Source: an uncultured Candidatus Saccharibacteria bacterium (lineage in GTDB: Bacteria; Patescibacteriota; Minisyncoccia; JACQLN01). From it: a DNA stretch of 64,000 bases. The stretch lies in assembly GCA_964365305.1 (NCBI GenBank), contig CAYIPG010000001.1, positions 2,214 through 66,213 on the forward strand, read 5' to 3'. This document shows, in pieces, positions 29,097 to 54,921 of the stretch (position 1 is its first letter; every line of letters starts with the position of its first letter). A program made the translations under genes and the position numbers. A model generated the notes under the pieces. That model was given only the letters and a program-made list of their open reading frames with translations, was not told where the DNA came from and did not search any database.

Positions 29097-29325
29097 ATTT
29101 TACATTATATTTATCTAAAACTTTTTTAATATCTCCCACATTTTTAACCGCCATAAGATCATCCATATCAAATCTGACACCACTAGCTTTTTCCAGCTCA
29201 ACCATCATCATTATAGCATTAAAAGAATCCCATGTTGGCGTGTTGGTTGGAGAAATTTCATCATTTATTTTGTTGCTGGGGATTTCCAATATTTTTGCCA
29301 GTATATCGTATAATTTTTCTTTCAT
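29086..29325 (-). CDS. Acyl/peptidyl carrier protein (DltC/ACP-like).
   Basis: 79 aa. WDSFNAIMMMVELE contains the phosphopantetheine-attachment Ser in a DS(L/F) context followed by the helix-II acidic patch. Confidence 0.7.
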   Translation of the reverse strand: MKEKLYDILAKILEIPSNKINDEISPTNTPTWDSFNAIMMMVELEKASGVRFDMDDLMAVKNVGDIKKVLDKYNVKYVC

Positions 29326-29327
29326 AT

Positions 29328-31115: not shown

Positions 31116-31122
31116 ACTTAAA

Positions 31123-31461
31123 TTATCTCTTAAACGCTATAGCTATTCCAAAACTACTATCATGACTTATGCTTATTTGTATATCCTGTTTTGGCAAACC
31201 TTTTATTTTCACGCATGGCTGTCCACATACTTTATGCTTAATTTCAATTTGACCATGGTTATTTATTTCTTTTTTACCACATGCTTTAATCACAGCTTCT
31301 TTTGCGGCAAAAATTCCAGACAAATGTTCAGAAAATCTTACATTTGAAAAGCAATATTCCCATTCTTTCTTTGTATAAAATTTATCCCAAAATGGATAAT
31401 CTTTTTTCTTTATATTTTTAAACCTACTAATAGAGACAATATCTATTCCAATTCCAATCAT
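31123..31461 (-). CDS. acpS: Holo-ACP synthase (4'-phosphopantetheinyl transferase, AcpS type).
   Basis: 112 aa. MIGIGIDIVSISRF and AAKEAVIKA motifs of AcpS. Confidence 0.75.
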   Translation of the reverse strand: MIGIGIDIVSISRFKNIKKKDYPFWDKFYTKKEWEYCFSNVRFSEHLSGIFAAKEAVIKACGKKEINNHGQIEIKHKVCGQPCVKIKGLPKQDIQISISHDSSFGIAIAFKR

Positions 31462-31569
31462 AATTATTCCGCCTTAAAATAAACTACTTAACAATACCAT
31501 ACCATTATCAATCGGCTCTGTCAAAAAGCCAAGGTTTGGTTGCCATTCGTAGAAAAATATCTTGCTAAA

Positions 31570-32694: not shown

Positions 32695-34056
32695 TTATTG
32701 TAAAACCAGTTCGGATAACAAATCAGCTATCCTGGAAGCCGATTTACCATCCAGTTTCCCAATTTGTTCAACAACTAAACTATTACGCCCAGACCTATCC
32801 AGGCCAGAATCATTAAGATATATATTGATAGTGCGTATCATTTCGTCTGGGTCTTTAGCAACAAAACAAGCCCCAGTTTTAAGCATTTTCTTGGTATGCT
32901 CATAATATTCCGCAAAACGCGATACGCTTCCAAAAACAGGCTTTTGCTCTTGTCCGTCAAAAGATACCAGAACAATAGGTCTATCAAGCGCTGCCGCGTC
33001 AAGAACCAAACTGGAAGCATAAATAACAACCAAATCGCTATGATATAACGAATCAGCTAACGGTAAATCTTCATCCATGGTAACCTCCCAATCTGAATAA
33101 ATATCTTTTCTAAATGGAATGCCTGGTTTATATATAAAAAAATTATTATCCGGAGTAAAACCATCGAAAGAAACATAATCATTCGGCGGTAATCTTACTA
33201 AAAACTTAACACTGCCTGGTATTTTTTTATCCAAAAGAGACCTTTTCAATATATCCAGTAGCTGCCCATCTGTGTTGGCAAAACGCCGGCCAAGCGGACC
33301 GACAAAAATTAATCTGTCTGAAGGATTAAAACCAAGCTTTTTCAAAAAAATGTCTCTAGAACAATATTCTCTCCTGACATAATGATCCAGCTGAGGCAAT
33401 CCTGACACAAAAATGTTCCCCTCTTTCATGTCTTCATGCTCTAATGCCTCTTTTTTAATAACATTGTTTTGAACTATAAGTTTATCCGGCTTAATTCTAA
33501 AAAGGCCTTTGTTGGTAATGTTATCCCAAGATCTAACCATACCTACAGTTAGCACACCGCTTTTTTTGCTTGCGGCCAAAAGATAAACATCCATGTCATG
33601 AAAAATATCAGTGGAAAATAATAAAAATGGAGAATATTTGTTTAAATATTTCTCCATCAAACCGATATCCATAAAAATAAGATCCAACCAACGAACAAAC
33701 TTCTTAACAAAACCAAAATTGCCAAAAAACTTACCCAATATCCTTGAAAAATAAAAATGGATTGCGTTTTGGTCGGAAAGATACTTTTTCTTTTGATGAA
33801 AAAAACGAGTTGTGGTGTTTACTAATGACCCGCCCAGGTATCTAAATAAAATATCTTTTCTGCTTAATTTTAAACTCGGTATTCCTTCTATGACTATATT
33901 TCCAAACTCAAATTTTTTCTTAAAATATTCTTCCTTATAGTCCGGCACCAATACAACCACCCTAATTCCGCTATTGACCAATAAACTAGCGATCCCGGTT
34001 TCCAAAATATTTCTAGATATAAAAGGATTAAAACTTGTAATAAATATTGTTTTCAC
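32695..34056 (-). CDS. TagF-like CDP-alditol phosphotransferase family GT-B protein (paralog 2).
   Basis: LIFVGPLGRRF and DLVVIYASSLVLDAAALDRPIVLVSFD motifs. Overall colinear with the 24772, 41207 and 49603 proteins. Confidence 0.5.
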   Translation of the reverse strand: MKTIFITSFNPFISRNILETGIASLLVNSGIRVVVLVPDYKEEYFKKKFEFGNIVIEGIPSLKLSRKDILFRYLGGSLVNTTTRFFHQKKKYLSDQNAIHFYFSRILGKFFGNFGFVKKFVRWLDLIFMDIGLMEKYLNKYSPFLLFSTDIFHDMDVYLLAASKKSGVLTVGMVRSWDNITNKGLFRIKPDKLIVQNNVIKKEALEHEDMKEGNIFVSGLPQLDHYVRREYCSRDIFLKKLGFNPSDRLIFVGPLGRRFANTDGQLLDILKRSLLDKKIPGSVKFLVRLPPNDYVSFDGFTPDNNFFIYKPGIPFRKDIYSDWEVTMDEDLPLADSLYHSDLVVIYASSLVLDAAALDRPIVLVSFDGQEQKPVFGSVSRFAEYYEHTKKMLKTGACFVAKDPDEMIRTINIYLNDSGLDRSGRNSLVVEQIGKLDGKSASRIADLLSELVLQ

Positions 34057-36014
34057 GGTTTCGTTATTTTATAAATTTCCACTAAAGAGTTACGATAAAC
34101 CAAACTCAAATTTTTATCCGCCGCTAGATTAATCCGACTGCCCAATTGCCTTTCCCATGGGCCAAAATAGACATAATCAGACGGCATATTGCTTATAACG
34201 CCTATCGAGGTGCTATTATAACGCTCTGTAAGTTCGTCTATTTTGCCCATCGGCAAGCCGGTTTTGCCGTCAAAATACTCCGCGAATGTTTTTTTAAATC
34301 CATCTCCATAAAGTTGAAACTGTGTTTTATTCAAATTAATACTCATATCCGGGAAACAGCCGGCATCAAAACAATTTTGAGGCGCTTTACCTTCCAGTTG
34401 CTGTCTAAAAAGATCAGATGGGACATTGAATAGTTTCCGAGCTATAAGCAGCCGTTCTTCCAATTCAAAATTAGAAGCCAAAGAAAGATGCGCCCGAGGT
34501 AAGAAGGGGCGGGCCGAAGTATATGCCATTAAATAGATGGAGGTTACATAGGAAGGTGAAATAATTTTGGGTTCTGGCTCAAGATTATGATTAATCCAAT
34601 CCCAAGAATCAACAACTTCATTGGAGAATTTATAGTAAAGCAAGGTTTCTTTATTGGGACTTTTCCATAAAGAGACGGTGTTTATGGCGTATTTGGAAAA
34701 AACTAGCAGACCTAGCACAGCTACTCCAATTTTTATTACCTTCTTTATTCTAAACGAATTTCTAAAACTATAAATCCAATCAAACAACAGCGTTATCCAT
34801 ATAATATAAAGAGTAACCGCCACAGGATAACGCCATTTGCTTGGCACCGTTGACTGCCCGATAAACAGCTGTAAATTCCACACCAATATAGCCGCTATTA
34901 TAAATCCAAAAAACAATAAACCTTTTTTATATTTATTTGTGAATTTGCCATCAGCAACCACGGTGTTTCTAAAGTATGTCGCCCCAATAGCCAAAATGGT
35001 TATAAAATAAAACAAATAATCCAATAGGTTCTTTTTATGAAACCCCCAGTCCCGGCCGGTCAGCACCGCCGAGCGATAAGATATGTCTTCAGCGTCCGGC
35101 AACGCCTTAAACATGAAATAATTGATAAAATAGGGCAACAATAGAATACCAAAAACAACAAAAAGAACTCCGAAATTTTTAAGCAGTTGCCGGTCTTTCG
35201 GATAAAACAGCGCCGCGGCTATGGCCATAACAGCCATGACCGCTGTCCAATATATCCAAGTGGTAAAATAAATATAGGCCAATAGCGCCGCCGGCAAAGC
35301 CGCCGCTACGGCAAGAGAATATTTCGGCTTCATCCAAAACCGGATAAAAGTAATTATCGCCGTAAGATAAAATGGATAGACCAGTAAAGGATGGTCAATT
35401 CTGGCTATACGAAGTTTATCAATCTGGGTTCTGATGATTGGAATAAACTGCTTGAAGGTATAATCAAACAGTGTTTTGAGATCATTGCGGAAATCAAATG
35501 AAAAGACATTGGGAAGAATCGGGGTTAAAGCGCCGGTTGCGGCAAAAAATAATGACCAGCTTTTGGATTTGAACAACAACCGTCCAACTATATAAAGAAA
35601 AACAAATATAACCGCCGAGAATAAGAATTGAATAAATAAATATGCTGATGTAACATCGCCCTTAAAAAGAGTTATGGCCAACCCGAATACCAAAGAAGGC
35701 AGGGCGTTGCGGGGAGACGGCCTTTGTTGGTCCAAAGAAAGTTCGGTTGGAGGAAAATGCCCGTCATATACTTCCCGAGCCCGTGGCACATACATATAAA
35801 GCTCGTCGCGGTAGGTTTTTAGTTGAGCCAATACAAACCTATCTTCATGAATATTAAAATAATCCCTAATGGCTAAAGGCGGACCAATAAATAAAAAACC
35901 CACCGCGGCCGCGGCGCAGCTAATCAAAAGGAATTCCTTTCTTGAAAATCTTGAAAACAAATTGGCTATTTTATTTGTTGCGTAACCGAAAATCACCCTT
36001 AAACTGTTTTTCAT
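34053..36014 (-). CDS. Large polytopic membrane protein of unknown family (paralog B).
   Basis: 653 aa. Shares YVPRAREVYDGHFPP and the C-terminus ...LVEIYKI with the 22833-24710 protein. The 5' end overlaps the RmlB-like gene by 44 nt, so the true start may be an internal Met. Confidence 0.4.
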   Translation of the reverse strand: MKNSLRVIFGYATNKIANLFSRFSRKEFLLISCAAAAVGFLFIGPPLAIRDYFNIHEDRFVLAQLKTYRDELYMYVPRAREVYDGHFPPTELSLDQQRPSPRNALPSLVFGLAITLFKGDVTSAYLFIQFLFSAVIFVFLYIVGRLLFKSKSWSLFFAATGALTPILPNVFSFDFRNDLKTLFDYTFKQFIPIIRTQIDKLRIARIDHPLLVYPFYLTAIITFIRFWMKPKYSLAVAAALPAALLAYIYFTTWIYWTAVMAVMAIAAALFYPKDRQLLKNFGVLFVVFGILLLPYFINYFMFKALPDAEDISYRSAVLTGRDWGFHKKNLLDYLFYFITILAIGATYFRNTVVADGKFTNKYKKGLLFFGFIIAAILVWNLQLFIGQSTVPSKWRYPVAVTLYIIWITLLFDWIYSFRNSFRIKKVIKIGVAVLGLLVFSKYAINTVSLWKSPNKETLLYYKFSNEVVDSWDWINHNLEPEPKIISPSYVTSIYLMAYTSARPFLPRAHLSLASNFELEERLLIARKLFNVPSDLFRQQLEGKAPQNCFDAGCFPDMSINLNKTQFQLYGDGFKKTFAEYFDGKTGLPMGKIDELTERYNSTSIGVISNMPSDYVYFGPWERQLGSRINLAADKNLSLVYRNSLVEIYKITKP

Positions 36015-41206: not shown

Positions 41207-42562
41207 ATGAAAATGATATTTCTGTTTATACCGCATTATGTTTATACATCAGATTTGCTCCACACAAAATATATAAATCACCTGGCAAGCAAATATCGTG
41301 TAATGGTGTTCGGGCCAGTTTTTGATCCTGTCAACATAGAATCGTATCCTAAGTTAGACAATGTTGAGTATGTTTATATGGAAGCGCAACACCCCAATCT
41401 TTGGCTACTTTTTAACAAAACCTTACGTTTTTCCTTAATAAAAGAATTTGACAATCTGGAATACCATAAATTAATAGCCCGAACGGGCCGGAATTTAAAC
41501 TGGCAAAGAAAATTATTAAAAAATATAGCTGTGCTATTGCCTAATTTTCTTGTTAAAGTCAATAGCTTCACTAAGCTAGAAAGTATACTGTTAGACAACT
41601 CGGGACTGATTAAAGATTATATCGATAAATACCAGCCCGAACTTATTCTAACATCCACACCCGGTTTTACCGGCCTGGAGGCTGAAGCTGTGCTTATGGC
41701 CAAAAAAAATAATATAAAAACCGTGGCCATAAACTTTAGTTGGGACAACATTTTTAATACCGCTAAACAAATAAGAAAAACGGATTATTTAATAGTTTGG
41801 AACAATCGGGTCAAAAATGCCGCCTGTGAAATTCATGGCTATCTCCCAAAAAACATTTGTGTTTCCGGTACAATGAGATTTGATCATCATTTTAACGATG
41901 AATTTAAATCTAAGAACATGTCTGGACGCACAAGTTTTTTGACCGAGAAAAATTTGAACCCTAATCTAAAAACTATATTTTTCACCACTGTACCGCCGCA
42001 CACATATCCTTTCCAAACCAAGTTTTTAGAAAATTTGATAAACTTAAGGGATAACGGCGTATTTAAAGAGAACTTAAACATAATAACCCGATTGCATCCC
42101 CGAGATGAAATAGCTAACTACAAACATATTATTGGCGCAAAAAATCTTCATATAGAGGAAGCGGGTCAATTAAAAAATCAAAGACCGGGAGATTTGCATA
42201 AAATAGAAATGAATGAAAGCGATTTGGAAAATTTGCGGCGGTCTCTGCTTTACTCAAATGTAGCGGTCAATTTTCGCTCCAGTATGACTTTGGAAACATG
42301 CCTCTATGATCTACCCACCATAAACTTGGCTTACCACGATTACGATATTTATTACCAAATGGATCATTACATACCTATACTGGCATCAGGGGCGGTTAAA
42401 CTGGTTAAAAATCAGGAAGAGTTTATAAATGCGATGAAAAATTATTTAGCAAACCCTAGATTGGATAGCGAAAAAAGAACAAAAATATCTAAAGAACTCG
42501 TCCCTTTCCAAGACGGCCTAGCTTACAAAAGAAATGTTGATTTTCTAGAAAGAATTATCTAA
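41207..42562 (+). CDS. TagF-like CDP-alditol phosphotransferase family GT-B protein (paralog 3).
   Basis: FSWDNIFNTAKQIRKTDYLIVWN and SNVAVNFRSSMTLETCLYDLPTINLAYHDYD motifs, colinear with the other three paralogs. Confidence 0.5.
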   Translation: MKMIFLFIPHYVYTSDLLHTKYINHLASKYRVMVFGPVFDPVNIESYPKLDNVEYVYMEAQHPNLWLLFNKTLRFSLIKEFDNLEYHKLIARTGRNLNWQRKLLKNIAVLLPNFLVKVNSFTKLESILLDNSGLIKDYIDKYQPELILTSTPGFTGLEAEAVLMAKKNNIKTVAINFSWDNIFNTAKQIRKTDYLIVWNNRVKNAACEIHGYLPKNICVSGTMRFDHHFNDEFKSKNMSGRTSFLTEKNLNPNLKTIFFTTVPPHTYPFQTKFLENLINLRDNGVFKENLNIITRLHPRDEIANYKHIIGAKNLHIEEAGQLKNQRPGDLHKIEMNESDLENLRRSLLYSNVAVNFRSSMTLETCLYDLPTINLAYHDYDIYYQMDHYIPILASGAVKLVKNQEEFINAMKNYLANPRLDSEKRTKISKELVPFQDGLAYKRNVDFLERII

Positions 42563-44400: not shown

Positions 44401-45939
44401 GTGATCAATGATTTTCGAGTGCTGATGCTCTATCCCAACTATCAACACGAGATGATGGTACCGCCGGCCTTGGCGTTATTTTCCTCTCTGTTGAAGTGGG
44501 AGGGCTTTAAGGTGGATCTGTTTGACACCACCAATTACAAGATTGACACCGGTGGGGTGGATTCGGAGAAAAGTAAAATGGCCAACTTAACGGTGCGGCC
44601 GTTTAAGTCGACAACCTTGATCAAAAAGGATGATGTCTACACTGATTTTCGCCAAAAGATCAACTCCTTCAGCCCCGATCTACTTTTGGTAACCGCTACC
44701 GAAAACATGTTTTTGGTGGCCATGAAGTTGCTCAACTCGGTTGAGGACACTGGCGTGCCTGTTGTTCTAGGCGGGGTTTTTGCTACTTTCGCCCCGGACT
44801 TAGCCATGCGCTGGCGGGAAGTGGACATGTTGTGCGTGGGCGAGGGAGAGCAGGTCATTGTGGAATTATGCCGCCGCATGAACCGGGGTGAGGATTCTTC
44901 CAGCATTCCCGGACTCTGGGTTAGAGGAAAAGATGGCCTGATTAAAAAAAATCCCCTGGGTCCTCGAGTGAATATGGATGAAAACCCGTTGCCCGATTTT
45001 ACTCTTTTTGAGGATTCTAGATTCTACCGTCCTATGGCCGGTAAGATTTTGAGAATCTTTCCCGCAGAAACTCATCGGGGCTGTCCCTTTACTTGCGCTT
45101 TTTGCAATTCGCCCGATCAGGACAGATTATACGGTCAAGCCACCGGGCAAAAATTCTTTCGCAAGAAAAGGTTTGATAAGATTCACGAGGAACTTTTGTT
45201 TTGCCGCGATGTCTGGCGGGCCCAGTATATCTTTTTCTGGGCGGATACTTTTTTCGCCTGGAGCGAAGAAGAGTTCGATCAGTTCTGCGAAATGTACGCC
45301 GACATCAAACTGCCTTTCTGGTGTCAAACCCGACCCGAAACAGTAGTGGAGCGCCGCATCAAAAAACTAAAAGATGTTGGCATTCACAGAATGGGTTTTG
45401 GCATTGAGCATGGCAACTTTCAATTCAGAAAGGATGTGGTTGATCGCCGCTATACTAATGAACTGGTGATAGCAAGAATGAGAATTCTGGTGGAGCAGGG
45501 TGTTGAATTTAGCGTCAATAACATCATCGGCTTCCCCGACGAAACGCGGGAATTGTCTTTTGATACTATTGAACTAAATCGGCATATTCCGAGCGACACC
45601 ATGAGCTGTTCAATCTTTGTTCCTTTTCATGGGACAAGATTGAGGGAATTGTGTGTCGAAAAGGGCTACATCCATCCTGATGTTATCTGCCCCACCAACT
45701 CCGACGATACGGTTTTAATTATGCCGCCGCCTTTTATGAGCAAAGAACAAATGAAGGGTTTGCGGCGGGTGTTCGCCATGTATGTTAAATTCCCCAAAGA
45801 ACGCTGGCCAGAAATTCGGCAGGCCGAAGAGCTGACTCCTGAGGGGGATGAGGTTTGGGAGAAGTTAAGAAAGGAGTTTGTTAAAACCTTCTTTGCTCCG
45901 CCCGAAACCGACATCGAAAAGATCAATAATGCTGTTTAA
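44401..45939 (+). CDS. B12 (cobalamin)-binding radical SAM protein, putative class B radical-SAM methyltransferase.
   Basis: GTG start. N-terminal B12-binding-like domain (RVLMLYPNYQ...), then CPFTCAFC (CxxxCxxC) radical-SAM cluster motif; 512 aa. Confidence 0.8.
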   Translation: MINDFRVLMLYPNYQHEMMVPPALALFSSLLKWEGFKVDLFDTTNYKIDTGGVDSEKSKMANLTVRPFKSTTLIKKDDVYTDFRQKINSFSPDLLLVTATENMFLVAMKLLNSVEDTGVPVVLGGVFATFAPDLAMRWREVDMLCVGEGEQVIVELCRRMNRGEDSSSIPGLWVRGKDGLIKKNPLGPRVNMDENPLPDFTLFEDSRFYRPMAGKILRIFPAETHRGCPFTCAFCNSPDQDRLYGQATGQKFFRKKRFDKIHEELLFCRDVWRAQYIFFWADTFFAWSEEEFDQFCEMYADIKLPFWCQTRPETVVERRIKKLKDVGIHRMGFGIEHGNFQFRKDVVDRRYTNELVIARMRILVEQGVEFSVNNIIGFPDETRELSFDTIELNRHIPSDTMSCSIFVPFHGTRLRELCVEKGYIHPDVICPTNSDDTVLIMPPPFMSKEQMKGLRRVFAMYVKFPKERWPEIRQAEELTPEGDEVWEKLRKEFVKTFFAPPETDIEKINNAV

Positions 45940-46048: not shown

Positions 46049-46786
46049 CTATTTCCCAAGGACATAAACTATTTTAGATCCCCATCTCTTCCTAAGTTTA
46101 CCATCCAATCCGAATCCGGAAGCTAAATTTAATATAAATCTTCTGGCTCTGCCTTTTACACCCATAAAAATCCCCTCATTTACAAAATATTTTTTATCAA
46201 TCAACTTGAAATATTTAAGTACGGTCTTATTGAAAATAGCGGGAGTAAAAATTGAGATATGATTATTTTTTTCATGGAAACCAGAAATCTCGCCATATTT
46301 ATAAAAATACCTCCGACTCAAAAAAGAATCAGTATTAACTAAAGTAAAAATAAATATTCCTCGTTTTTTTAATATTCTATGCACTTCCCTTATAAAATTA
46401 TGGGGATTCTCCAAGTGAGGCAGAACGCACCACGCTGTAATAATGTCAAAAAAAGAATCGCCATGCGGGATTTTGTCGTAATTTAGGTCAACAATTTTAA
46501 AATCTTTTAAAAAACGGCGATTCTCATCATTAATATAATCATCAACATCCAAACCATAAACATTTTTTATACCAACATCTACAACTAATTGCCTAATAAA
46601 ATCGCCGCTGGCCGTCCCGCAATCTAAAACATTTACATCACCGCTGTTTCCAAAAAAAAACCTCTTATAATCAAAAACTATGCCTGAACAAAACTTATTC
46701 CTAACAGTCGGCCCTTTATAAGTCCTGAGCCTGTCTTTTAAAACTTGGTCGGAACGTATTTCTTCCGTGGTTAAATATTTGGCCAT
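46049..46786 (-). CDS. Class I SAM-dependent methyltransferase (paralog of 48879-49619).
   Basis: VLDCGTASGDF motif I and ITAWCVLPHLENP, shared with the paralog. Confidence 0.55.
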   Translation of the reverse strand: MAKYLTTEEIRSDQVLKDRLRTYKGPTVRNKFCSGIVFDYKRFFFGNSGDVNVLDCGTASGDFIRQLVVDVGIKNVYGLDVDDYINDENRRFLKDFKIVDLNYDKIPHGDSFFDIITAWCVLPHLENPHNFIREVHRILKKRGIFIFTLVNTDSFLSRRYFYKYGEISGFHEKNNHISIFTPAIFNKTVLKYFKLIDKKYFVNEGIFMGVKGRARRFILNLASGFGLDGKLRKRWGSKIVYVLGK

Positions 46787-46789
46787 AGA

Positions 46790-47842
46790 TTAATATAAAT
46801 CCTCAAGTTTTATTTGTTCATCCTCTTCTATCATTTTTCTGATTTTTTTGCCAACCACCCTATCAATCATGGCGGGAGACAAACCGCCCTTGCCCGGCCG
46901 CTTAAAATCTATCATGTCTTTTTTCAAAACTGTGCCGACAGAGAGATCGCGGTTTGCCACGATACTCTGACCAGCCCAATTCCTGCCTTTCTCTAAGGTC
47001 TTTATTCTTTTTTTTTCAGTGTGTTGCTTTAAGGCAGTCTCGATATCCCTTATTTGTTTGACCATCAGTTTAAACTCTTGAGGCAACAACGCGCCTGGAT
47101 TATCCAAAGATCGGGGATCTGTTTTATCAAAAGTCAAATGCTTTTCTACTATACAAGCTCCCCTGGCCACGGCGGCTAGCGGTATATGCCAACCAACGCT
47201 GTGATCCGAAATACCGACCGGAACATTATACTTATCCCTAAAATATTCCATTCTTTTTAGGTTGGCGTGCTCATACGGGGTGGGATAAATAGAAACACAA
47301 TGTAGTATGATAATATCCTTAACACCATTTTTTCGTAAAGTATTAATGGCCTTATCAACTTCTTCGTTGGTCTGCACGCCAAAAGATATAATCACCGGCT
47401 TTTTTCTTTTGGCGATATTCTTTAAAAACTCATAGTTATGCGCCTCGCCCGAACCAACTTTAAAGTAAGGTTGCTTGATGATGTTGTCCAGAAAATCCAA
47501 GCTTTCGTTGTCATGCGCGGTTGCAAAAACTGGAATACCGATATTCTGGGCGTGGTTAAAAATTTTTTCCATCTGAACATCCGAAAATTCTTTATACTTC
47601 ATTCGCTCAAACCAATTATAACCAAGCTCTTTCTCTAACCTGTTGCTAACCTTTTTGCTCACCAATTTTTCGGTTTTGGTCGCTTGAAATTTAACTATAT
47701 CCGCTCCGGCTTCAAAAGCGGCTTCAATTTGTTTTTTAGCTAAATCAATCTGACCATAATTAGTGACTCCACCCTCGCAAATTATAAAACATGGCTTACC
47801 TTCTCCAACAATCATCTTGCCTAATTTTATTTTATTTTCCAT
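46790..47842 (-). CDS. Third NeuB-family nonulosonic acid synthase, with SAF domain.
   Basis: VKFQA, LHCVSIYPTP, GISDHS and EKHLT motifs, with C-terminal GTVLKKDMIDFKRPG. Confidence 0.8.
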   Translation of the reverse strand: MENKIKLGKMIVGEGKPCFIICEGGVTNYGQIDLAKKQIEAAFEAGADIVKFQATKTEKLVSKKVSNRLEKELGYNWFERMKYKEFSDVQMEKIFNHAQNIGIPVFATAHDNESLDFLDNIIKQPYFKVGSGEAHNYEFLKNIAKRKKPVIISFGVQTNEEVDKAINTLRKNGVKDIIILHCVSIYPTPYEHANLKRMEYFRDKYNVPVGISDHSVGWHIPLAAVARGACIVEKHLTFDKTDPRSLDNPGALLPQEFKLMVKQIRDIETALKQHTEKKRIKTLEKGRNWAGQSIVANRDLSVGTVLKKDMIDFKRPGKGGLSPAMIDRVVGKKIRKMIEEDEQIKLEDLY

Positions 47843-48810
47843 TTTTTTATTTCTTTTAACACTAATTCGCTTATATATACTTGCGTTCTCTCATTAGCTT
47901 CCTTGGTTGAACCGCCAAGATGAGGAACTATTATCAAATTACTGTTTTTCTTGGCGTACTCAACCAAGGGATTACTTCTTATATGGCCGCCATCCGGCAT
48001 TTCATTGCTTAGAGTGTCCAGAGCCGCGCCGGCTATACCCCCATCATTTAACGCATTAAACAGAGCCGCTTCGTCCGTAATTTCTCCCCGGGCAGTATTT
48101 ATAAAAATAGCGCTCGGCTTCATCATTTTAAAATGTTTTTCTTTAATCATCCCGAAAGTTGAATCATTGTAAACCGAGTGCAAGGAAACAATATCTGATT
48201 TTCTCAAAACATCCGCCAAACCCGCCTTACGAACACCATATTCTTTCATCTCCTTGCGACTAATAAAAGGGTCGTGGGCTAAAACCTTCATACCAAAGGC
48301 CATGCTGTATTTAGACACCATTTTACCCAAACGGCCAAAACCGATAAGACCGATAGTTTTGTTATAAAGTTCAACCCCGGCATATTTTTTTCTATCCCAT
48401 TCGCCTTTTTTAATTGAGTCAAAAGCTGCCGGTATATTCCTTAACAGAGCCAACACCAAAGCAATAGTTTCCTCGGCTGTGGAGTAAGTTTTTTTAAGAA
48501 CGGGAGAACCGGCCTTAATATTAATTATATTAATACCTCTCCTGCGACATTCATCCAAATCAATATAACGCAGTTGTGTTGTCCTGGAACCCACCAATTT
48601 CAAGTTGATGGCTTTGTCCAAAACATCCTTACTAAGCTTAACTTCAAGCCCGGTGACTAATACATCAGCTGATGCGAGATTACTAAAAAATGTTTTATTT
48701 GAAACAAAATCAATAACCCTGCCTCCTTTGGCAAGAATGTTTTTAGCTCTTAAATTGAAATCTTTTTCAGCAATTAGTATTGTAAGCATGGCCCATGTAT
48801 AATTTCTCAT
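47827..48810 (-). CDS. D-isomer-specific 2-hydroxyacid dehydrogenase family (second copy).
   Basis: IGLIGFGRLGKMVSKYSMAFGMKV and HLGGST motifs. Confidence 0.75.
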   Translation of the reverse strand: MRNYTWAMLTILIAEKDFNLRAKNILAKGGRVIDFVSNKTFFSNLASADVLVTGLEVKLSKDVLDKAINLKLVGSRTTQLRYIDLDECRRRGINIINIKAGSPVLKKTYSTAEETIALVLALLRNIPAAFDSIKKGEWDRKKYAGVELYNKTIGLIGFGRLGKMVSKYSMAFGMKVLAHDPFISRKEMKEYGVRKAGLADVLRKSDIVSLHSVYNDSTFGMIKEKHFKMMKPSAIFINTARGEITDEAALFNALNDGGIAGAALDTLSNEMPDGGHIRSNPLVEYAKKNSNLIIVPHLGGSTKEANERTQVYISELVLKEIKKWKIK

Positions 48811-48878
48811 ATACTATAACATCTAGCAACCATGTCTTGTTTTTGGATGTTATAGTAATAGATTAACATAAAATAAAA

Positions 48879-49619
48879 ATGCGCTATTTTACAGCTGATG
48901 AAATAAAAAACACAAATAGAAAAGAGGTCACAGAAGTATTAAAAGGGTGCGCCGGAAAAAATGTAAAATATTATTTTGGAATAAAGGTGTTTAAAAAATA
49001 CTCCGATTTTGCATTGATAACGCACGATGCCAAAATATTAGACCTCGGAACAGCCAGCGGAGCTTTTACAAAACAGCTATACAATTTGGGCTATAAAAAT
49101 ATATTCGCGCACGATATAGACAATTACCTCCCTAATGAGGTGAAAGAAATTGTGAAAGAATACAAACTATCGGATCTAAGCACAGAAAAAAACCCTTGGG
49201 ATGATAACTTTTTTGACGCTATAACCGCTTGGTGTGTTTTACCGCATTTAGAAAATCCGTTCCATTGCGCTAGAGAGCTCTGGCGTGTTCTAAAACCCGG
49301 TGGAATATTTATGTTCACAACTCCTCATATTCTTTCAAAACCAAGCATGGCTTTCTTTCTAAAAAAGAAATATTTCGCGGGGTACAGACCAACCAATAAC
49401 CATATAGCGTTGCTTCCTTTAAGTATTTTGGAGAAAACTATTTTTAGAGGTTTTGAGCTTATTGGAATAGAATATCTGGTTACACCAAAAGTAAACCGGG
49501 GCGCTAAGGGTAAATTAAGGAAATTACTGATTGACTTAAGTAAGTATAATAAATGGCTAAAAAAATTTCTTGAAAAAAGATGGGCTTATAATATCTGCTA
49601 TATCATACGCAAAATTTAA
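48879..49619 (+). CDS. Class I SAM-dependent methyltransferase (paralog of 46049-46786).
   Basis: ILDLGTASGAF and ITAWCVLPHLENP. Confidence 0.55.
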   Translation: MRYFTADEIKNTNRKEVTEVLKGCAGKNVKYYFGIKVFKKYSDFALITHDAKILDLGTASGAFTKQLYNLGYKNIFAHDIDNYLPNEVKEIVKEYKLSDLSTEKNPWDDNFFDAITAWCVLPHLENPFHCARELWRVLKPGGIFMFTTPHILSKPSMAFFLKKKYFAGYRPTNNHIALLPLSILEKTIFRGFELIGIEYLVTPKVNRGAKGKLRKLLIDLSKYNKWLKKFLEKRWAYNICYIIRKI

Positions 49620-50973
49620 GCATGATTTTAGCCAATCTTTCGGCCGATTTTCCATCCCTTTTCCAGCAAATATCCTCGGCAACTTTTTTTCTTTCATCCA
49701 TGTCTAAATCAGGATCTGAAAGATAACCCTTTAGATATTGGGATAACTCGTTTTCGTTATAAGCAATTTTAACTCCCTTACTTTTTATTAACGGCTGTAA
49801 GTGTTCCAGTTTAAAGAATTTTCTAATACTTTCCTTCTCACTAACACTTTTTATCTTATCAAAACCTATAAGAATGACGGGTTTATCAAAAAATAACGCG
49901 TCCATAGCTATGGTTGATGGACCAGGCAACACAACATCGCTATTACAAATTAAATTCATAAGATGTTGATCCGCGTTTTTATCAAGCTCGCCCTTGCCAA
50001 AAAGCGTCTTTGGATAATCTAACTTAAAATTAGAAGGGAGTTTCAAACTACTTATATCTACTTGACCTATCACGGGCAATCTGATTAAAACTTGAACTTT
50101 GTTCGGATCCAAACATCTCAATAATTCAAGAACATACTCATTATAACTAACACTGTCTTTGCTAAATTGTTTCTGTAAGAAACTATCGGCAATAGTTATA
50201 AACAGTACGGTTTTTTTGCTTGGATCCAGACCAATTTTATTAAAAAAAACATCTCGAGGTGTTACCGCTATATTCAAGTAGTTATCATAGTGGGGAATAC
50301 CAACTATTTCTATGTTTTTCTCTGCTACTCTATTGTATTTTTCGCATTCCTCTTTCATAATCTCATTCTGTACAATAATCCTATCTGGAATTTCCCTAAT
50401 TATTCCCCGTCCGGTCAAATTATCCCACGATCTGACCATACCTACGACAAAAATACCTCTTTTTTTGGACTCTCTGATTAAGTCCAGATCGCTTTCCCCC
50501 TCGCTCCTATCAGTTATATCGGTTGAGAAAACTAAAACTGGATTATACTGGTCAAAATAAACGCCAAACCGGTTTTTAGGCAGAAAACAATAATCCAAAG
50601 TCCTTAGCGCGCCCTTAGCTAACTTAGAATTACCGAATAAGACCGTTAAAACACGGCTCATAAAATACTGAACCATTCCAGAAAATGTGTTTAGTTTTAA
50701 TCTTAATCTAAGAAAAATTTTAACAGTGTTGGTATTGAGTAAAGCGCGAGACAAAAAACCAAAAAAAATCTTAACCGTGGATAATGGCGGAACTATTACT
50801 CCTTCAATAATTAGATTGGCATGCCCAAAATTTTTCTCTAAGTAATTTTTTTCGCTCACCGGCGCCAATATCACTATCCTGACACTCCCAGAAGAGAGAA
50901 TCTTTAAAAAATCGGTGGCCAAGATATTTCTGACCACGAAATTAGAAAAAACGCTAACAAAAACTGTTTTCAT
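49603..50973 (-). CDS. TagF-like CDP-alditol phosphotransferase family GT-B protein (paralog 4).
   Basis: RSWDNLTGRGIIREIPDRIIVQN and SDVVLPGPSTIAMDALFFDKPVILIGFD motifs. Confidence 0.5.
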   Translation of the reverse strand: MKTVFVSVFSNFVVRNILATDFLKILSSGSVRIVILAPVSEKNYLEKNFGHANLIIEGVIVPPLSTVKIFFGFLSRALLNTNTVKIFLRLRLKLNTFSGMVQYFMSRVLTVLFGNSKLAKGALRTLDYCFLPKNRFGVYFDQYNPVLVFSTDITDRSEGESDLDLIRESKKRGIFVVGMVRSWDNLTGRGIIREIPDRIIVQNEIMKEECEKYNRVAEKNIEIVGIPHYDNYLNIAVTPRDVFFNKIGLDPSKKTVLFITIADSFLQKQFSKDSVSYNEYVLELLRCLDPNKVQVLIRLPVIGQVDISSLKLPSNFKLDYPKTLFGKGELDKNADQHLMNLICNSDVVLPGPSTIAMDALFFDKPVILIGFDKIKSVSEKESIRKFFKLEHLQPLIKSKGVKIAYNENELSQYLKGYLSDPDLDMDERKKVAEDICWKRDGKSAERLAKIMLKFCV

Positions 50974-50980
50974 TGGTTAG

Positions 50981-51691
50981 TTATAGTATTAGGAATGATC
51001 GGGCGATTTCCAAGTCAAAGGGATCGTTTATATCATGAGCGCTTTTCGTGTCTATCTCAAAACCCACCGCTTGGCCTAATTCAATCTTTTTTTCCTTCAA
51101 AAACAAATCTCGTTTAAACCACCATAAATTACCATGAGCGTATCTTTTAGGATCAAGTTGCCTGCTGGGATGAGCATAATGCAATTCTGGATTATCAAAT
51201 CGTAAATAACCGTTAGAATCAATATGACGAACATGGTAAGGATGAAAAACACGGGGCACGGCTATAACAGTTTTTCCCGAATCCGCCTTTTTGGATATAA
51301 TTAAGTCAAGTGTTTTATCTATTTGTTCAGGTTTTATAAAAGGAGTGGTAGGTTCAATCAGTAGAATATATTCAGGTTTATAATTCTGGTTTTGTTCTAA
51401 CCATAAAAGAGCGTGCTCAATAACCGGTATGGTCGGCGTGTTGTCTTGGGCTAATTCCTGGGGGCGCAGGAATGGTATTTCGGCTCCCCACTGCTGGGCC
51501 ACATCAGCAATTTCTTTATCATCGGTGGTAACAATTAATCGTTTAACCGAATTACTGCTCTTTATCGCTTCGAGACAATACGCCATCAGCGGCTTTCCGC
51601 CAAGATCCGCGATGTTTTTACGGGGGATGGATTTGGATCCGCCTCTAGCGGGAACAATCGCTAATGTTTCAATTTTATTATAAACATTCAT
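50981..51691 (-). CDS. Third acylneuraminate cytidylyltransferase-family protein.
   Basis: LAIVPARGGSKSIPRKNI...LIVTTDD. The track ORF extends to 51805. I place the start at the internal ATG (51691-51689, MNVYNKIETLAIV) by comparison with the paralogs and to avoid overlapping the sqdB-like stop. Confidence 0.7.
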   Translation of the reverse strand: MNVYNKIETLAIVPARGGSKSIPRKNIADLGGKPLMAYCLEAIKSSNSVKRLIVTTDDKEIADVAQQWGAEIPFLRPQELAQDNTPTIPVIEHALLWLEQNQNYKPEYILLIEPTTPFIKPEQIDKTLDLIISKKADSGKTVIAVPRVFHPYHVRHIDSNGYLRFDNPELHYAHPSRQLDPKRYAHGNLWWFKRDLFLKEKKIELGQAVGFEIDTKSAHDINDPFDLEIARSFLIL

Positions 51692-51761
51692 AGATAAAAC
51701 TATATATAATTGTAACCCAAAAATAAAGCCGGCGGTTTTTTGCCGATGGCTGTGTGTGATC

Positions 51762-53000
51762 CTATACAAAACGAACTTTTTCCCTACGCCCATCCCACTG
51801 GACATCGGGGATCAATACATCCTTTTTGGCCTCAATGCGATCTCGGCACTTCATTAGATCTAGAAGCATAACCTCCATCTCGGTTTCTATGTCATGGGTG
51901 GGTCGGTATCCCAAATCAAGAAGATGTCTATGGTCGGGGTTGTAATAATGTTCCTCCATTTCTTTGCGCGGATTCTCGAGATTGCGCACTTCCACCGGCA
52001 ATCCCAACCCACCGGCCACTTTCTTGATTTTCAGAGCCAACTCGGTGATATCATAGACCTCCTCGAACTGGTTGAAAACCCGATACTCACCGTTCCTAGA
52101 TGGGTTCTCAAGCGCGAGAGTCAGACACTGCATGGAATCCCGCAGGGGAAGGAAACCTCTTTTCTGATGTCCCTTCCCAAACGGCGTCAGCGGGTGTCCA
52201 ATGACGGCCTGACAGCAGAAACGGTTGATGGCTGTACCGAAGGCCTGATCAAAGTCCAGTCGTGTCAACAACTGTTTGTCATTGCCCATGGCATCGATGC
52301 GAGTACCAAAAACAACGCCCTGCATAATATCCGTGGCCCGCAGGCCCCAGATTTTGCAGGCAAACATAATGTTGTTAGAACTATGAACTTTGCTCCAGTG
52401 GTACCAACTTCCCGCTTGTCGTGGAAAAACCGCCTTGGGATATTTCTTCCCACGAAATTCGGCATCAAAGAAACCCTCTGGGATATCAACCGGTGGCGTG
52501 CCGTACTCACCCATTGTCCCCAACTTGACCAGATGGGCCTGTGGGCAAATATCCCGCATAGCAAAGATCAAATTGAGAGTTCCAACAATGTTGTTGGTCT
52601 GGACGAACGCAGCGTGTTTGGCGCTCATCATAGAATACGGCGCCGATGGGCATTCACCCAAATGCACCACAGCATCGGGTTGGAACTCGCGAAAAACCCG
52701 TTCAACCAGATCGTAATCACGGAGATCCCCTTCCCAAAAACGCAATTCTCTCCCAAAACGCTTTTTGAAAGCTGGTAATCGTTCTTTCATTAAACAGATA
52801 GGTATGGCACTCCAGGAACCCATTTCTTCCACCCACACCCGGCGGGAAAAATTATCCACCCCCGCCACCTTATGACCTCTAGCCGTTAAATGCTGCGCCA
52901 AAGACCAACCTAAATACCCGTCCACTCCAGCAATCAAAATTTTCATTTTATGGTCTCCTTTTTTAGAGATTGATGAAGGTTGCTTGATCGTTTTTTTCAT
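51762..53000 (-). CDS. sqdB: UDP-sulfoquinovose synthase (SQD1/SqdB).
   Basis: Near-colinear match to remembered SQD1 signature blocks: HLVKLGTMGEYGTP, WYHWSKVHSSNNIMFACKIWGLRATD, QGVVFG, RLDFDQAFGTAINRFCCQAVIGHPLT.FGKGHQKRG, RVFNQFEE and EEHYYNPDH. The gene is visibly more GC-rich than its neighbours. Confidence 0.85.
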   Translation of the reverse strand: MKKTIKQPSSISKKGDHKMKILIAGVDGYLGWSLAQHLTARGHKVAGVDNFSRRVWVEEMGSWSAIPICLMKERLPAFKKRFGRELRFWEGDLRDYDLVERVFREFQPDAVVHLGECPSAPYSMMSAKHAAFVQTNNIVGTLNLIFAMRDICPQAHLVKLGTMGEYGTPPVDIPEGFFDAEFRGKKYPKAVFPRQAGSWYHWSKVHSSNNIMFACKIWGLRATDIMQGVVFGTRIDAMGNDKQLLTRLDFDQAFGTAINRFCCQAVIGHPLTPFGKGHQKRGFLPLRDSMQCLTLALENPSRNGEYRVFNQFEEVYDITELALKIKKVAGGLGLPVEVRNLENPRKEMEEHYYNPDHRHLLDLGYRPTHDIETEMEVMLLDLMKCRDRIEAKKDVLIPDVQWDGRREKVRFV

Positions 53001-53049
53001 AAAAAGAGCAAAAATAACCTTAACATTTGTATAAACTTAAGTAAAGACA

Positions 53050-53730
53050 TCAAATTTTGGTGTGCAAACCGCATTCACCGCCAATATGGGCTGTGCCGCT
53101 AAATCGACCTGCTCTTTCAAATTGTCCTTGTCTACCGCCACCCTCTCGGGTTTTACCAGATGTAGTGCATGGCTTACAACCCAAGGAAAGGTAACCTTGA
53201 CCGTAAAGAGGGTGGTGTCTTAAATTATTTTCTTTTATGTATTGCCACACATCCTCTTTAGTCCAAAAAGCAATTGGATTTATCTTGGCAATTTTACCAT
53301 CTTCAACCAGTGGAGTATTTTTTCTGTATTCTGTTTCATCCCTCCGCAATCCAGTAATCCATGCATCATAATTACCCAAAACAGCATTTATTGCTGGTAT
53401 CTTCATTTCACAACATTTATACTGATCATTTTTTATGAAAGAAGCGCCATAATACTCATTTATTTTTTTCTCGTCCTCTTCACTGGGACGAGTCCATTTA
53501 AAATTCATCTTTAAGTCGCTCACTAGAGAAGCGGCGAAAGATAGGGTTTCTTCAAACTCGTATCCCGTATCTATACCCACAAACTGAAAATCCGGATTTA
53601 TCTGCCTTACCAAATCCACTATAACTACCGAGTCCTTACCAAAAGAGCAGGCCGCAAAAATATGTGGATACGCTTTGGCCGCCAATGTTATTAGGCCTTT
53701 GGAAACATCTGTTTTCTCTTTGAGAGTCAT
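53050..53730 (-). CDS. cysH: Assimilatory APS/PAPS reductase (CysH family, Fe-S type).
   Basis: SFGKDSVV (PP-loop, cf. SGGKDS), KCCEMK (CC pair), SLGCKPCT (CxxC) and the C-terminal ECGLH motif. Confidence 0.8.
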   Translation of the reverse strand: MTLKEKTDVSKGLITLAAKAYPHIFAACSFGKDSVVIVDLVRQINPDFQFVGIDTGYEFEETLSFAASLVSDLKMNFKWTRPSEEDEKKINEYYGASFIKNDQYKCCEMKIPAINAVLGNYDAWITGLRRDETEYRKNTPLVEDGKIAKINPIAFWTKEDVWQYIKENNLRHHPLYGQGYLSLGCKPCTTSGKTREGGGRQGQFERAGRFSGTAHIGGECGLHTKI

Positions 53731-53763
53731 ATAGATTTAATTATTTGGTTAATTATAATATTT

Positions 53764-54921
53764 TTAACTCAACCTTTTCTCCAAAAGTTTCCTGTTTATT
53801 TTTACTGACTTTAAAATCTTCACTATCCTTTCCGAAGCCCGACCATCGCCCAAATGCGGCTTGATATTTTTAAGTTTTTGCCTAAAAATCTTATTTGCCA
53901 AAACATATCTTATCTTTTCGATTACATCGGTTTTATTATGATTTGAATCAACCACATTACTGGATCTAGATCGGCCGGTTTGACGATGACCGATATTCAC
54001 CGCCGGCAATTTTAGGTAAGGGGCTTCTACCAAAGCTCCAGAGGAATTACCAATCATAGCTTTAGCCGCGGCCATCAAACCCAAAAAATCCAAATTTTCT
54101 ATATTCTTATAAATTTTGAAATTAGAGTCGTGATCAACTTCATGGATGGCCTTGATAATTCCTTCGTAACCCGGATCGGAACAAGGATAAAGCAGAACTG
54201 ATTTAAAATCTAACGATTTGATCGCGCCAAGAATTAACTTCATATCTTCATAGTTCTCTCGGCTAGTTTTCATTGTTTCAGGATGGTAAATGGTAATAAA
54301 AAAATCTTCACCGGGCCAAGCGTATTTAGCCGCAGCCGCCTTAGGAACAGTAAATATTCTCTTAATAATACGATCTATATAAACCGAACCGACTGTGTGA
54401 ATGCGCCACGACTCTTCGCCCAACGACCTAACAATTTGGGCCGCTCTTTTAGTTTCCGGAAAATGAATGTGAGCTAACTTAGTAATAGCGTGCCGTTGAA
54501 CATCGTCTACATTACCGGACGACTCACCACCTTGGGTGTGAGCAATGGGTATATTCAAAGACAAAGCCGCAAAGGCAATCATCAAATGTTCCCCGCGGTC
54601 GGCGTGCACCAAAACAATATCAGGCCTTAATTTATTAAGAACCGACACGCTCCTAGTCAGACACAAACCCAAATTCTCGGCCCTGATGACCGCCGAATCT
54701 CCACGGCCAGTGCCTATATCAATAACCTCTATTTTTGACTTTGGGAAAAGATTATTTGCCTCGTCGACAGTTTTTCCAAACTGCGGTGAGGCATGCATAT
54801 CAGAAAGAAGAAGCTGTAATTCCAAACCCGGGTCTTTTTCAATTAGTTTTATAAGTTCAGAATAAGCGCCTAGGCCACCCCTCTTGCCCGAAAAAACACA
54901 GATTTTTCTTTTTTTTTTCAT
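53764..54921 (-). CDS. Second UDP-N-acetylglucosamine 2-epimerase, hydrolysing type (NeuC-like).
   Basis: IAHTQGGE...RHAITKLAHIHF...VGSVYIDR, colinear with the 8945-10207 protein. Confidence 0.75.
   Translation of the reverse strand: MKKKRKICVFSGKRGGLGAYSELIKLIEKDPGLELQLLLSDMHASPQFGKTVDEANNLFPKSKIEVIDIGTGRGDSAVIRAENLGLCLTRSVSVLNKLRPDIVLVHADRGEHLMIAFAALSLNIPIAHTQGGESSGNVDDVQRHAITKLAHIHFPETKRAAQIVRSLGEESWRIHTVGSVYIDRIIKRIFTVPKAAAAKYAWPGEDFFITIYHPETMKTSRENYEDMKLILGAIKSLDFKSVLLYPCSDPGYEGIIKAIHEVDHDSNFKIYKNIENLDFLGLMAAAKAMIGNSSGALVEAPYLKLPAVNIGHRQTGRSRSSNVVDSNHNKTDVIEKIRYVLANKIFRQKLKNIKPHLGDGRASERIVKILKSVKINRKLLEKRLS

Follow-up and report, generated by a model that had tools for sequence, protein, structure and literature searches.

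Sialic, legionaminic and pseudaminic acids, together with their isomers, are known as nonulosonic acids (NulOs). They shape the surfaces of bacteria and the recognition of these by phages and immune systems, and they bear on capsule typing; to our knowledge the enzymes that diversify them are mostly not known. One such system is that of Acinetobacter baumannii, in which EpaA, a CTP_transf_3 cytidylyltransferase fused to an aldo-keto reductase (AKR), and EpaB, a short-chain dehydrogenase/reductase (SDR) related to AciE, convert Pse5Ac7Ac to its 8-epimer as determined by nuclear magnetic resonance (PMC12053666); the same pair is present in a Vibrio pseudaminic acid (Pse) cluster (PMC7371886). 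Here we analysed a 64,000-nucleotide stretch of DNA, hereafter the window, from a metagenome-assembled genome (MAG) of the Patescibacteria or candidate phyla radiation (CPR; contig CAYIPG010000001.1), in which two D-2-hydroxyacid dehydrogenases (2-HADHs), HADH A and HADH B, are encoded next to NulO genes. We report that these two proteins belong to a distinct, uncharacterised clade of SERA-like 2-HADHs whose members adjoin or are fused to NulO genes in at least eight bacterial phyla, and comparison of these loci suggests that the clade most likely adds an unstudied chemical step to sialic-acid-like sugars.

The window is one very large glycan locus and carries three cytidylyltransferases (CTs), two NeuC genes, three full NeuB-family genes or fragments thereof, four TagF-like transferases (with weak matches to the BFO_1060 model), approximately ten S-adenosylmethionine (SAM) methyltransferases, a flippase (Wzx), several glycosyltransferases and a self-contained FkbH module. 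The initial annotation of the window had noted tight overlaps between dehydrogenase genes and NeuB- or NeuA-type genes, and these genes, all on the minus strand, and their overlaps were confirmed on the sequence and by Pfam and NCBIfam searches. Specifically, HADH B (47827-48810; PF02826 and PF00389; loop SRTTQLRYID, B-type) is followed by a NeuB-family NulO synthase with a SAF domain (46790-47842; Pfam NeuB 241 bits, NeuB_NnaB 300 bits against a cut-off of 400, PseI 239 bits). With the stop codon of HADH B ending at 47827 and the ATG of NeuB at 47842, the two genes overlap by 16 nt; the residues after this ATG, MENKIKLGKMIVGEGKP, appear to resemble the usual NeuB N-terminus. HADH A (17944-18903; 2-Hacid_dh and 2-Hacid_dh_C; loop ATSTTGLNHID, A-type) shares the four nucleotides ATGA with CT#2 (18900-19622), and CT#3 (50981-51691, within an ORF extending to 51805; 236 aa in the NCBI gene call) belongs to the HADH B neighbourhood. 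Both are CMP-NulO-type enzymes of the CTP_transf_3 family with PseF as the best-scoring model (156 and 153 bits, respectively), and since this is below the equivalog cut-off of 206 bits they are family members to which no equivalog can be assigned. The NCBI gene calls on contig JBBUIZ010000030.1 (GCA_038055065.1), of which the window is the reverse, agree with these ORFs, and HADH B corresponds to MEK7078174.1, named 'NAD(P)-dependent oxidoreductase [Patescibacteria group bacterium]'. The HADH/CT/TagF-like set is present twice, around HADH A (module 2) and HADH B (module 3), as diverged paralogues with 43%, 39% and 29% identity, respectively. Because this set is duplicated, and because the HADH-CT-NeuB/NeuC linkage recurs in unrelated genomes (see below), the arrangement is more than chance.

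Both HADHs have the two-domain fold defined by PF00389 and PF02826 (NAD-domain matches of 178 and 170 bits), while their scores against the D-3-phosphoglycerate dehydrogenase (PGDH) equivalog TIGR01327 are 248 (HADH B) and 219 bits (HADH A), with a cut-off of 454 bits. The AlphaFold2 model of HADH B has a pLDDT of 91.6, and a Foldseek comparison of the fold with PHGDH gave a template modelling (TM) score of 0.82-0.84; among solved structures, the nearest are those of PGDHs (1wwk and the human enzyme PHGDH, with 32-34% identity and TM ≈0.83). The catalytic residues R241, E270 and H297, the glycines G157, G159 and G162 of the GxGxxG motif, and D180, which specifies NAD, are invariant in 28 sequences including both window HADHs. 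SERA enzymes are defined by a phosphate-binding Arg-Ser motif in the beta3-alpha3 loop together with an Arg in the beta4-alpha4 loop (PMC6303947). In the B-type HADHs the Arg-Ser motif 'VRS' of PGDH is replaced by 'TGL', such that Arg is lost, and in the A-type by 'VRL', such that Ser is lost; the PGDH motif 'GRAGxGxDN' reads 'SRTTQLRH' in the B-type and 'ATxTTGLNH' in the A-type. The B-type enzymes, which lose the Arg of this motif, gain R76 and R81, and insertions of five and four residues are common to the NulO-linked HADHs and absent from true PGDHs. As judged from these motifs, the PGDH phosphate site is lost or remodelled in the NulO-linked clade. We considered whether HADH A and HADH B are housekeeping SerA proteins and rejected this on the basis of the sub-cut-off PGDH scores, the loss of motifs, the position in the tree and the genomic context. 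In the databases, clade members are named either as a generic oxidoreductase or as 'D-3-phosphoglycerate dehydrogenase'.

The fusion proteins described below group with every NulO-linked HADH in a single clade of a neighbour-joining (NJ) tree built from 87 sequences, and this clade stands apart from 1wwk, human PHGDH and an ACT-bearing type I PGDH. We defined the clade by the tree, as the descendants of the most recent common ancestor of HADH A, HADH B, one Leptospirales member and one Pelagibacteraceae member, because a regular expression for the second insertion did not work as a clade signature and the bit score alone fails to separate the clade at about 170-200 bits. A sister group with the motif TTGxxHID has no NulO genes nearby. 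Most of the 2-HADHs with TTG(L/I)(N/D)HID that score 170-200 bits against HADH A (loci L098 and L100-L107, and other metagenome loci) are without the first insertion and without NulO genes nearby; two of these loci, L098 and L102, are inside the tree-defined clade though they have no NulO genes. The CTs that accompany B-type HADHs also form a clade, which mirrors the HADH tree and includes CT#3.

To sample locus contexts, we looked up the encoding contigs and scanned 185,579 species genomes as well as metagenomes. Of the in-clade loci flanked by 6 kb or more, 26 of 29 carried CT, NeuB or NeuC, compared to 1 of 78 outside the clade (Fisher p = 2e-20, a value that overstates the evidence since the loci were chosen by similarity and lack phylogenetic independence). 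The clade is found in Patescibacteria, Actinomycetota (Gaiellaceae), Vibrio, Enterovibrio, Micavibrio, Pelagibacteraceae, Desulfonatronum, Gemmatimonadota, Nitrospirota, Leptospirales and Prochlorococcus, and a tblastn search against plasmids gave only approximately 31%-identical Streptomyces serA-like genes and no clade members. The CT gene is mostly directly upstream of, or overlaps, the HADH gene. Minimal cassettes consisting of NeuB, NeuC, CT and HADH only are present in Desulfonatronum lacustre (L087, where a methyltransferase gene is interposed), in Enterovibrio (L088) and in two further loci (L171 and L172). All-vs-all clustering of the neighbours at 41 clade loci gave NeuC in 27, NeuB in 25, TagF-like proteins in 13, methyltransferases and nucleotide-sugar dehydrogenases in 12 each, and AsnB-like proteins in 6; no further universal partner of the HADH emerged from this clustering. 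Hence, the co-conservation that the initial annotation had put forward as a check is evident, and where it had named a grouping with housekeeping SerA and a lack of linkage in relatives as points that would speak against its reading, we found a separate clade with linked loci.

Gene fusions came to light when 1.84 billion representatives were searched with a profile and in a subsequent search; the resulting proteins are encoded in glycan loci. HADH precedes CT in one protein (P0121), while the reverse order, CT-HADH, is found in P0155 and 10 further clusters (55-88% identity) from independent sources; an HADH-methyltransferase fusion is also present (P0187). P0388 is a 969-aa NeuC-CT-HADH protein (L171 5414-9340; L172 8118-11698). 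NeuB is split into frameshifted fragments on both of these contigs, and the triple fusion may be an assembly artefact caused by indel errors. In the searchable literature we found no published description of the clade, only a passing report of NeuB with a PGDH domain in Leptospira santarosai (Fouts et al., PMC4758666). Together, the linkage across the clade and the fusions show that the coupling of PGDH-like dehydrogenases to NeuB/NeuA-type enzymes recognised in the initial annotation is real and non-canonical. Given this co-conserved coupling and the non-SerA identity, its suggestion of a modified product was also reasonable.

The genes surrounding the two HADHs point to two types of cassettes. 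In module 3, CT#3 is preceded (on the minus strand) by a SqdB-like protein of the UDP-sulfoquinovose-synthase family (gene 51762-52946 in an ORF of 51762-53000; 394 aa in the NCBI call; NF041015 547 bits, cut-off 575), a CysH-type (P)APS reductase (53050-53730; PAPS_reduct 150 bits, NF002537 179 bits and above the cut-off of 154) and NeuC, a hydrolysing UDP-N-acetylhexosamine (UDP-HexNAc) 2-epimerase (53764-54921; TIGR03568 320 bits, cut-off 236). The other NeuC of the window (8945-10207) scores 330 bits against the same cut-off. A SqdB-like gene is present at all nine B-type loci, and where the genes are tightly packed (L005, L007, L008, which is on the same contig as L089, L011 and L090) they constitute a four-gene operon, SqdB-like-CT-HADH-NeuB, in which genes overlap by 4 nt and near which NeuC is encoded; the SqdB-like homologues of L002 and L003 are located nearby. 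The HADH-NeuB junction seen in the window recurs in L005, L089 and L090. Within CPR and Actinomycetota, the SqdB-like gene is a constant part of the B-type cassette. The SqdB-like proteins of L005 (8019-9206), L089 (8110-9285), L090 (8110-9288), L002 (8751-9905) and L003 (1027-2184) match NF041015 over the full length, as the window copy does, with 436-479 bits, i.e. below the cut-off of 575. These scores suggest a sister subfamily, which possibly acts on UDP-GlcNAc and feeds NeuC and NeuB. The cysH gene is found beside the SqdB-like gene in the window and in no other clade locus; CysH could plausibly provide the SqdB-like enzyme with sulfite locally, and the adjacency backs the use of sulfite in the window only.

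In module 2 the corresponding position is occupied by a nucleotide-sugar 6-dehydrogenase (19622-21340, minus strand), which abuts CT#2 and has the N-terminal, central and C-terminal UDPG_MGDP_dh domains (TIGR03026 386 bits) and an N-terminal extension of approximately 135 aa with a weak CBS match. It is closest to UDP-ManNAc dehydrogenase (259 and 227 bits with two models, both below cut-off). The order dehydrogenase-CT-HADH(-NeuB) recurs in L017, and L013 has a full-length homologue of the dehydrogenase with 41% identity near its HADH gene. In other words, the HADH subtype tracks the C6-modifying partner, the B-type with SqdB-like proteins and the A-type (window, L017 and L013) with the extended UDP-HexNAc dehydrogenase. 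Neither the SqdB-like gene as an integral, conserved cassette member nor the dehydrogenase as its counterpart beside HADH A was part of the initial annotation. From the families involved we infer that both partner enzymes modify C6 of the nucleotide-hexose, which would become C9 of the NulO after NeuC and NeuB; alternatively, they may belong to ordinary donor synthesis. A UDP-ManNAc dehydrogenase in the Enterovibrio locus L088 was considered as support for a 9-carboxy NulO and was discounted, as it is an ordinary WecC (740 bits) paired with WecB.

On the basis of these data we propose, with a probability of roughly 0.55, that the HADH is a dedicated, NAD-dependent fourth enzyme of NeuC/NeuB/CT-type NulO pathways, which would act between synthesis and CMP activation. 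In the proposed pathway NeuC would free a ManNAc-type hexose from UDP-HexNAc, optionally after modification of the precursor at C6 by the SqdB-like enzyme (module 3) or the UDP-HexNAc 6-dehydrogenase (module 2), and NeuB would then join the hexose and phosphoenolpyruvate to give the free NulO. The HADH would oxidise or epimerise a carbinol of the NulO using NAD(H), whereupon the adjacent, co-inherited CT would turn the modified sugar into its CMP derivative for use by TagF-like transferases, with methyltransferases adding O-methyl groups. That the HADH acts on the NeuB/CT metabolite stream is suggested by the constant partnership with CT, by the fusions (to CT, methyltransferase and possibly NeuC, and to NeuB according to the literature) and by the lack of an acyl-activating or acyl-transfer partner. 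Oxidation, or epimerisation through transient oxidation, is favoured because the invariant Asp points to NAD, not NADP, as the cofactor and because the relatives among the SERA enzymes work as dehydrogenases. Our best guess for the site would be C8 of the exocyclic chain, since C8 adjoins the C9 group that differs between the cassette types.

Several points weigh against this proposal. That the NulO itself is the substrate is inferred, as are the direction and site of the reaction and the connection between C6 and C9. A 2-HADH normally needs a carboxylate beside the carbon acted upon; there is none at C8 of an ordinary NulO, and for that end of the molecule to be a true 2-hydroxy acid the NulO would have to be of the 9-carboxy kind. 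EpaA/EpaB uses two redox enzymes, whereas the cassettes here have one without a conserved second reductase. Moreover, the bootstrap support for the HADH clade is moderate (60/100 for the 23-sequence clade including the unlinked L018, and 34/100 for the 22 sequences without it), three in-clade loci with adequate flanks carry no NulO genes, and NeuB was not found within 10 kb in L002, L003, L009 and L013. Finally, in L002 and L003 the HADH gene is beside or near genes for serine hydroxymethyltransferase (SHMT) and FolD, which could point to serine or one-carbon metabolism.

This last point raises the question whether the HADH might be a divergent true 3-phosphoglycerate dehydrogenase, or a hydroxypyruvate reductase, that boosts the supply of serine and one-carbon units (through SHMT and FolD) for methyl and formyl groups. 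The HADH, SHMT and FolD genes overlap in L002, L003 has SHMT-FolD together with a formyltransferase, clade loci are rich in SAM methyltransferases, amino-acid biosynthesis is reduced in CPR genomes, and the nearest solved structures are, as noted, PGDHs. However, SHMT and FolD are present in just 2 of approximately 41 clade loci, SerC and SerB were not seen nearby, the residues that bind phosphate in PGDH are not kept and the scores are far below the PGDH cut-off; the constant partner is instead CT, also as a fusion, and we therefore regard this role as very unlikely. The fusion and adjacency with CT in both orders would also be compatible with a non-catalytic or NAD(H)-sensing HADH that regulates or scaffolds the CT, as CtBP is a redox sensor of the 2-HADH family. 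A CTBP subfamily is listed among the 2-HADHs (PMC6303947). This is the least probable of the explanations considered, given that the catalytic triad and the NAD site are invariant across 28 diverse members and that the substrate loops are remodelled but kept within subtypes, which argues for selection on substrate binding.

Two other explanations keep the HADH as a catalyst in glycan synthesis and assign it a different substrate. It could make a small alpha-hydroxy acid, D-glycerate from hydroxypyruvate or D-lactate, that becomes an optionally O-methylated N- or O-acyl substituent of the NulO. There are precedents for such groups in Pse5Am7Gra, 2,3-di-O-methylglyceroyl-Pse and 2-methoxy-trihydroxyhexanoyl-Pse of Treponema denticola, and the genes behind alpha-hydroxy- and alpha-methoxyacyl NulOs are unassigned in Tannerella forsythia and Vibrio vulnificus (PMC6120980, PMC5378307, PMC13439194). 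A substrate without phosphate would agree with the loss of the Arg-Ser motif that binds it in PGDH, methyltransferase genes flank HADH B and an HADH-methyltransferase fusion exists, one clade member (L016) is from a strain of the V. vulnificus group, and the SHMT beside the HADH in L002 could give serine and then hydroxypyruvate. Nevertheless, no acyl-activating enzyme, carrier protein or N-acyltransferase co-occurs in the neighbour clustering of the 41 clade loci, the minimal cassettes consist of NeuB, NeuC, CT and HADH only, NeuC-type pathways already give an N-acetylated C5, and repeated fusion to CT is hard to square with a supplier of a free C3 acid. Glyceryl units are known to be made via FkbH, and this gene is missing at each of the 41 other clade loci. 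In our judgement acyl supply is thus unlikely, though less so than the serine and CtBP-like roles. Alternatively, the HADH could reduce the C2 keto group of the NeuB product, or another keto acid, with the product handled as an alditol as in TarJ/TarI/TarL or Bcs1. CDP-ribitol systems are defined by reductase-cytidylyltransferase fusions and TagF-family transferases, and TagF-like genes are present in 13 of the 41 clade loci, with four in the window. Furthermore, 2-HADHs such as GhrB reduce 2-keto sugar acids, which is established knowledge (2HADH review, PMC6303947). The CTs, however, belong to CTP_transf_3 (NeuA/KdsB/PseF-like) and form CMP-glycosides via the anomeric C2 hydroxyl, which the reduction would destroy; in addition, there is no kinase to make the phosphate for a CDP linkage, and Gram-negative Wzx/Wzy or Wza/Wzc loci that lack TagF-like genes make up many of the clade loci. 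Also, BFO_1060-type enzymes are reportedly implicated in NulO transfer in T. forsythia. We consider this route improbable, and clearly more so than acyl supply. By the same argument, the reduced 2-keto-3-deoxy acid that the initial annotation had offered as a product is unlikely, because the CMP-forming CT, whether adjacent or fused, must activate the anomeric hydroxyl, and this group would be lost on reduction at C2.

The proposal that the HADH modifies the NulO before CMP activation can be extended to specific products, and here we are considerably less certain. The B-type cassette (NeuC, SqdB-like, CT, HADH B and NeuB, with cysH in the window) might make a CMP-9-deoxy-9-sulfo NulO and the A-type a 9-carboxy 'nonulosaric' acid, with the HADH oxidising or epimerising C8, beside the new acid group, and TagF-like enzymes polymerising the products to a teichulosonic-acid-like wall polymer of CPR bacteria; taken jointly, we regard this combination as doubtful. 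A 9-deoxy-9-sulfo NulO, if true, would be an analogue of sialic acid that bears a sulfonate through a carbon-sulfur bond. The four TagF-like proteins are encoded at 24772-26172, 32695-34056, 41207-42562 and 49603-50973, and the CPR host is probably monoderm; by sequence family, the four would fit a teichulosonic-acid-like polymer. Those of modules 2 (24772-26172) and 3 (49603-50973), both on the minus strand, match Glyphos_transf and the BFO_1060 domain (52 bits each, a partial match for the latter protein) and are those that share 29% identity, over the full length; the module 3 protein is a candidate NulO transferase or polymerase of that module.

Other genes of the window and of related loci are also of interest. 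Two class I SAM methyltransferases flank the HADH B-NeuB pair, one divergent from HADH B (48879-49619, plus strand; Methyltransf_11/23/25) and one directly downstream of NeuB (46049-46786, minus strand; Methyltransf_11/23); according to family clustering they belong to one family with homologues in L002, L003 and L005. A radical SAM enzyme that binds B12, and that may be a C- or P-methyltransferase, is encoded at 44401-45939 (plus strand), in L002 (6561-8672) and in L003 (20121-20963). Related CPR loci have embedded genes for SHMT, FolD, formyltransferase and polysaccharide deacetylase (L002 10956-12975; L003 5095-7138 and 10951-14167; L005 4704-6657), with SHMT overlapping the HADH gene in L002. 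From this gene content we predict de-N-acetylation of a sugar followed by N-formylation, for which formyl-tetrahydrofolate would be supplied locally. AsnB-like amidotransferase genes are located beside the CT-HADH pair in L016 (7453-9249; Vibrio sp. IRLE0018) and L005 (12997-14877; a Parcubacteria MAG), consistent with an acetamidino-type modification of the NulO. A short NeuB-family protein of 323 aa without SAF (11310-12281) is followed by a protein of approximately 393-400 aa without Pfam or NCBIfam match (12542-13723); the pair recurs in L005 (18702-20954), and the latter protein is also found in L013 (14239-14559). Two paralogous large proteins, 22833-24710 (625 aa) and 34053-36014 (653 aa), have no family match; homologues are present in L003 (16375-18213) and L010 (7995-9974), usually beside TagF-like or GT2 genes. 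An ORF of L005 (14884-16845) is also 653 aa and without Pfam match.

The FkbH module (27926-32649, minus strand) encodes an MBOAT protein (31570-32649), an AcpS-like phosphopantetheinyl transferase of 112 aa (31123-31461), FkbH (29328-31115), a carrier protein (ACP) of 79 aa (29086-29325) and an SDR (27926-28690). An additional ORF of 142 aa (28668-29096) was read by eye as putatively hotdog/MaoC-like. In its make-up the module is reminiscent of a Dlt-like system, which could transfer an acyl group of glyceryl origin to a polymer outside the cytoplasm. The initial annotation had connected it to the dehydrogenases via a glycerate- or hydroxypyruvate-derived unit; this link is not supported, as the module is autonomous in the window and missing from the other clade loci. 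FkbH takes 1,3-bisphosphoglycerate and so needs no HADH.

The clade provides a widespread marker, recognisable by its motifs, fusions and fixed synteny, for a variant NeuC/NeuB/CT pathway in at least eight phyla, and its definition corrects the systematic mis-annotation of its members. The missing chemistry is directly testable, as the clade includes cultivable Vibrio, Enterovibrio and Desulfonatronum strains. For CPR bacteria and Actinomycetota, the clade points to possibly new NulOs of acidic character, either sulfonated or carboxylated at C9.

Comparison with known systems places the HADHs as follows. They share with the type IIIH PGDHs (1wwk and the human PHGDH core) the fold, the catalytic Arg/Glu/His, the NAD-specifying Asp and the lack of an ACT domain, but they score about half of the family cut-off, have remodelled motifs and two insertions, are separate in the tree, and their context is NulO biosynthesis rather than serC/serB. 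The surrounding genes resemble the canonical CMP-Neu5Ac/CMP-legionaminic acid pathway in having NeuC above the trusted cut-off, NeuB with SAF and a CTP_transf_3 enzyme. Unlike that pathway, they include an extra, obligatory HADH and, in the window cassettes, a SqdB-like enzyme or a UDP-HexNAc 6-dehydrogenase; moreover, the window NeuB and CTs are below their equivalog cut-offs. As in TarI/TarJ or Bcs1 with TagF, a redox enzyme and a cytidylyltransferase feed a Glyphos_transf-family transferase, and fusions occur in both; there, however, the cytidylyltransferase is IspD-like and the donor a CDP-alditol, whereas here the CT is NeuA/KdsB-like and a CMP-ketoside is expected, and the redox families also differ. 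The O-glycosylation locus of T. forsythia (BFO_1060/Tanf_01245) likewise has TagF-like transferases, many methyltransferases and a Wzx flippase around a NulO pathway, but the window proteins match the BFO_1060 model weakly (52-71 bits against a cut-off of 200) and the host is a CPR bacterium. In the papers searched on T. forsythia (PMC6120980, PMC6388019 and PMC5378307) we found no 2-HADH mentioned for this locus, and in the teichulosonic-acid literature we found no gene-level information on a 2-HADH.

With EpaA/EpaB the likeness is in the arrangement: an oxidoreductase is physically coupled to a CTP_transf_3 CT, and the module is added to a standard NulO pathway. For the HADHs this coupling takes the form of adjacent or overlapping genes in the window (4 nt for CT#2 and HADH A) and of fusions in relatives. 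EpaA/EpaB acts on the finished NulO, which is then CMP-activated in its modified form, and the same is predicted for the HADH. The enzymes also differ, AKR and SDR in the one case and a single enzyme with the 2-HADH fold in the other (the window has no AKR, and its sole SDR, at 27926-28690, is that of the FkbH module), and so do the pathways, Pse compared to NeuC-type (Neu/Leg-like). We therefore propose the HADH clade as a non-homologous analogue of the EpaA/EpaB 8-epimerisation module. The system described here fits best into a known kind, the NulO pathway whose tailoring oxidoreductase is coupled to a CT, and what is new is the 2-HADH clade in that proposed role.

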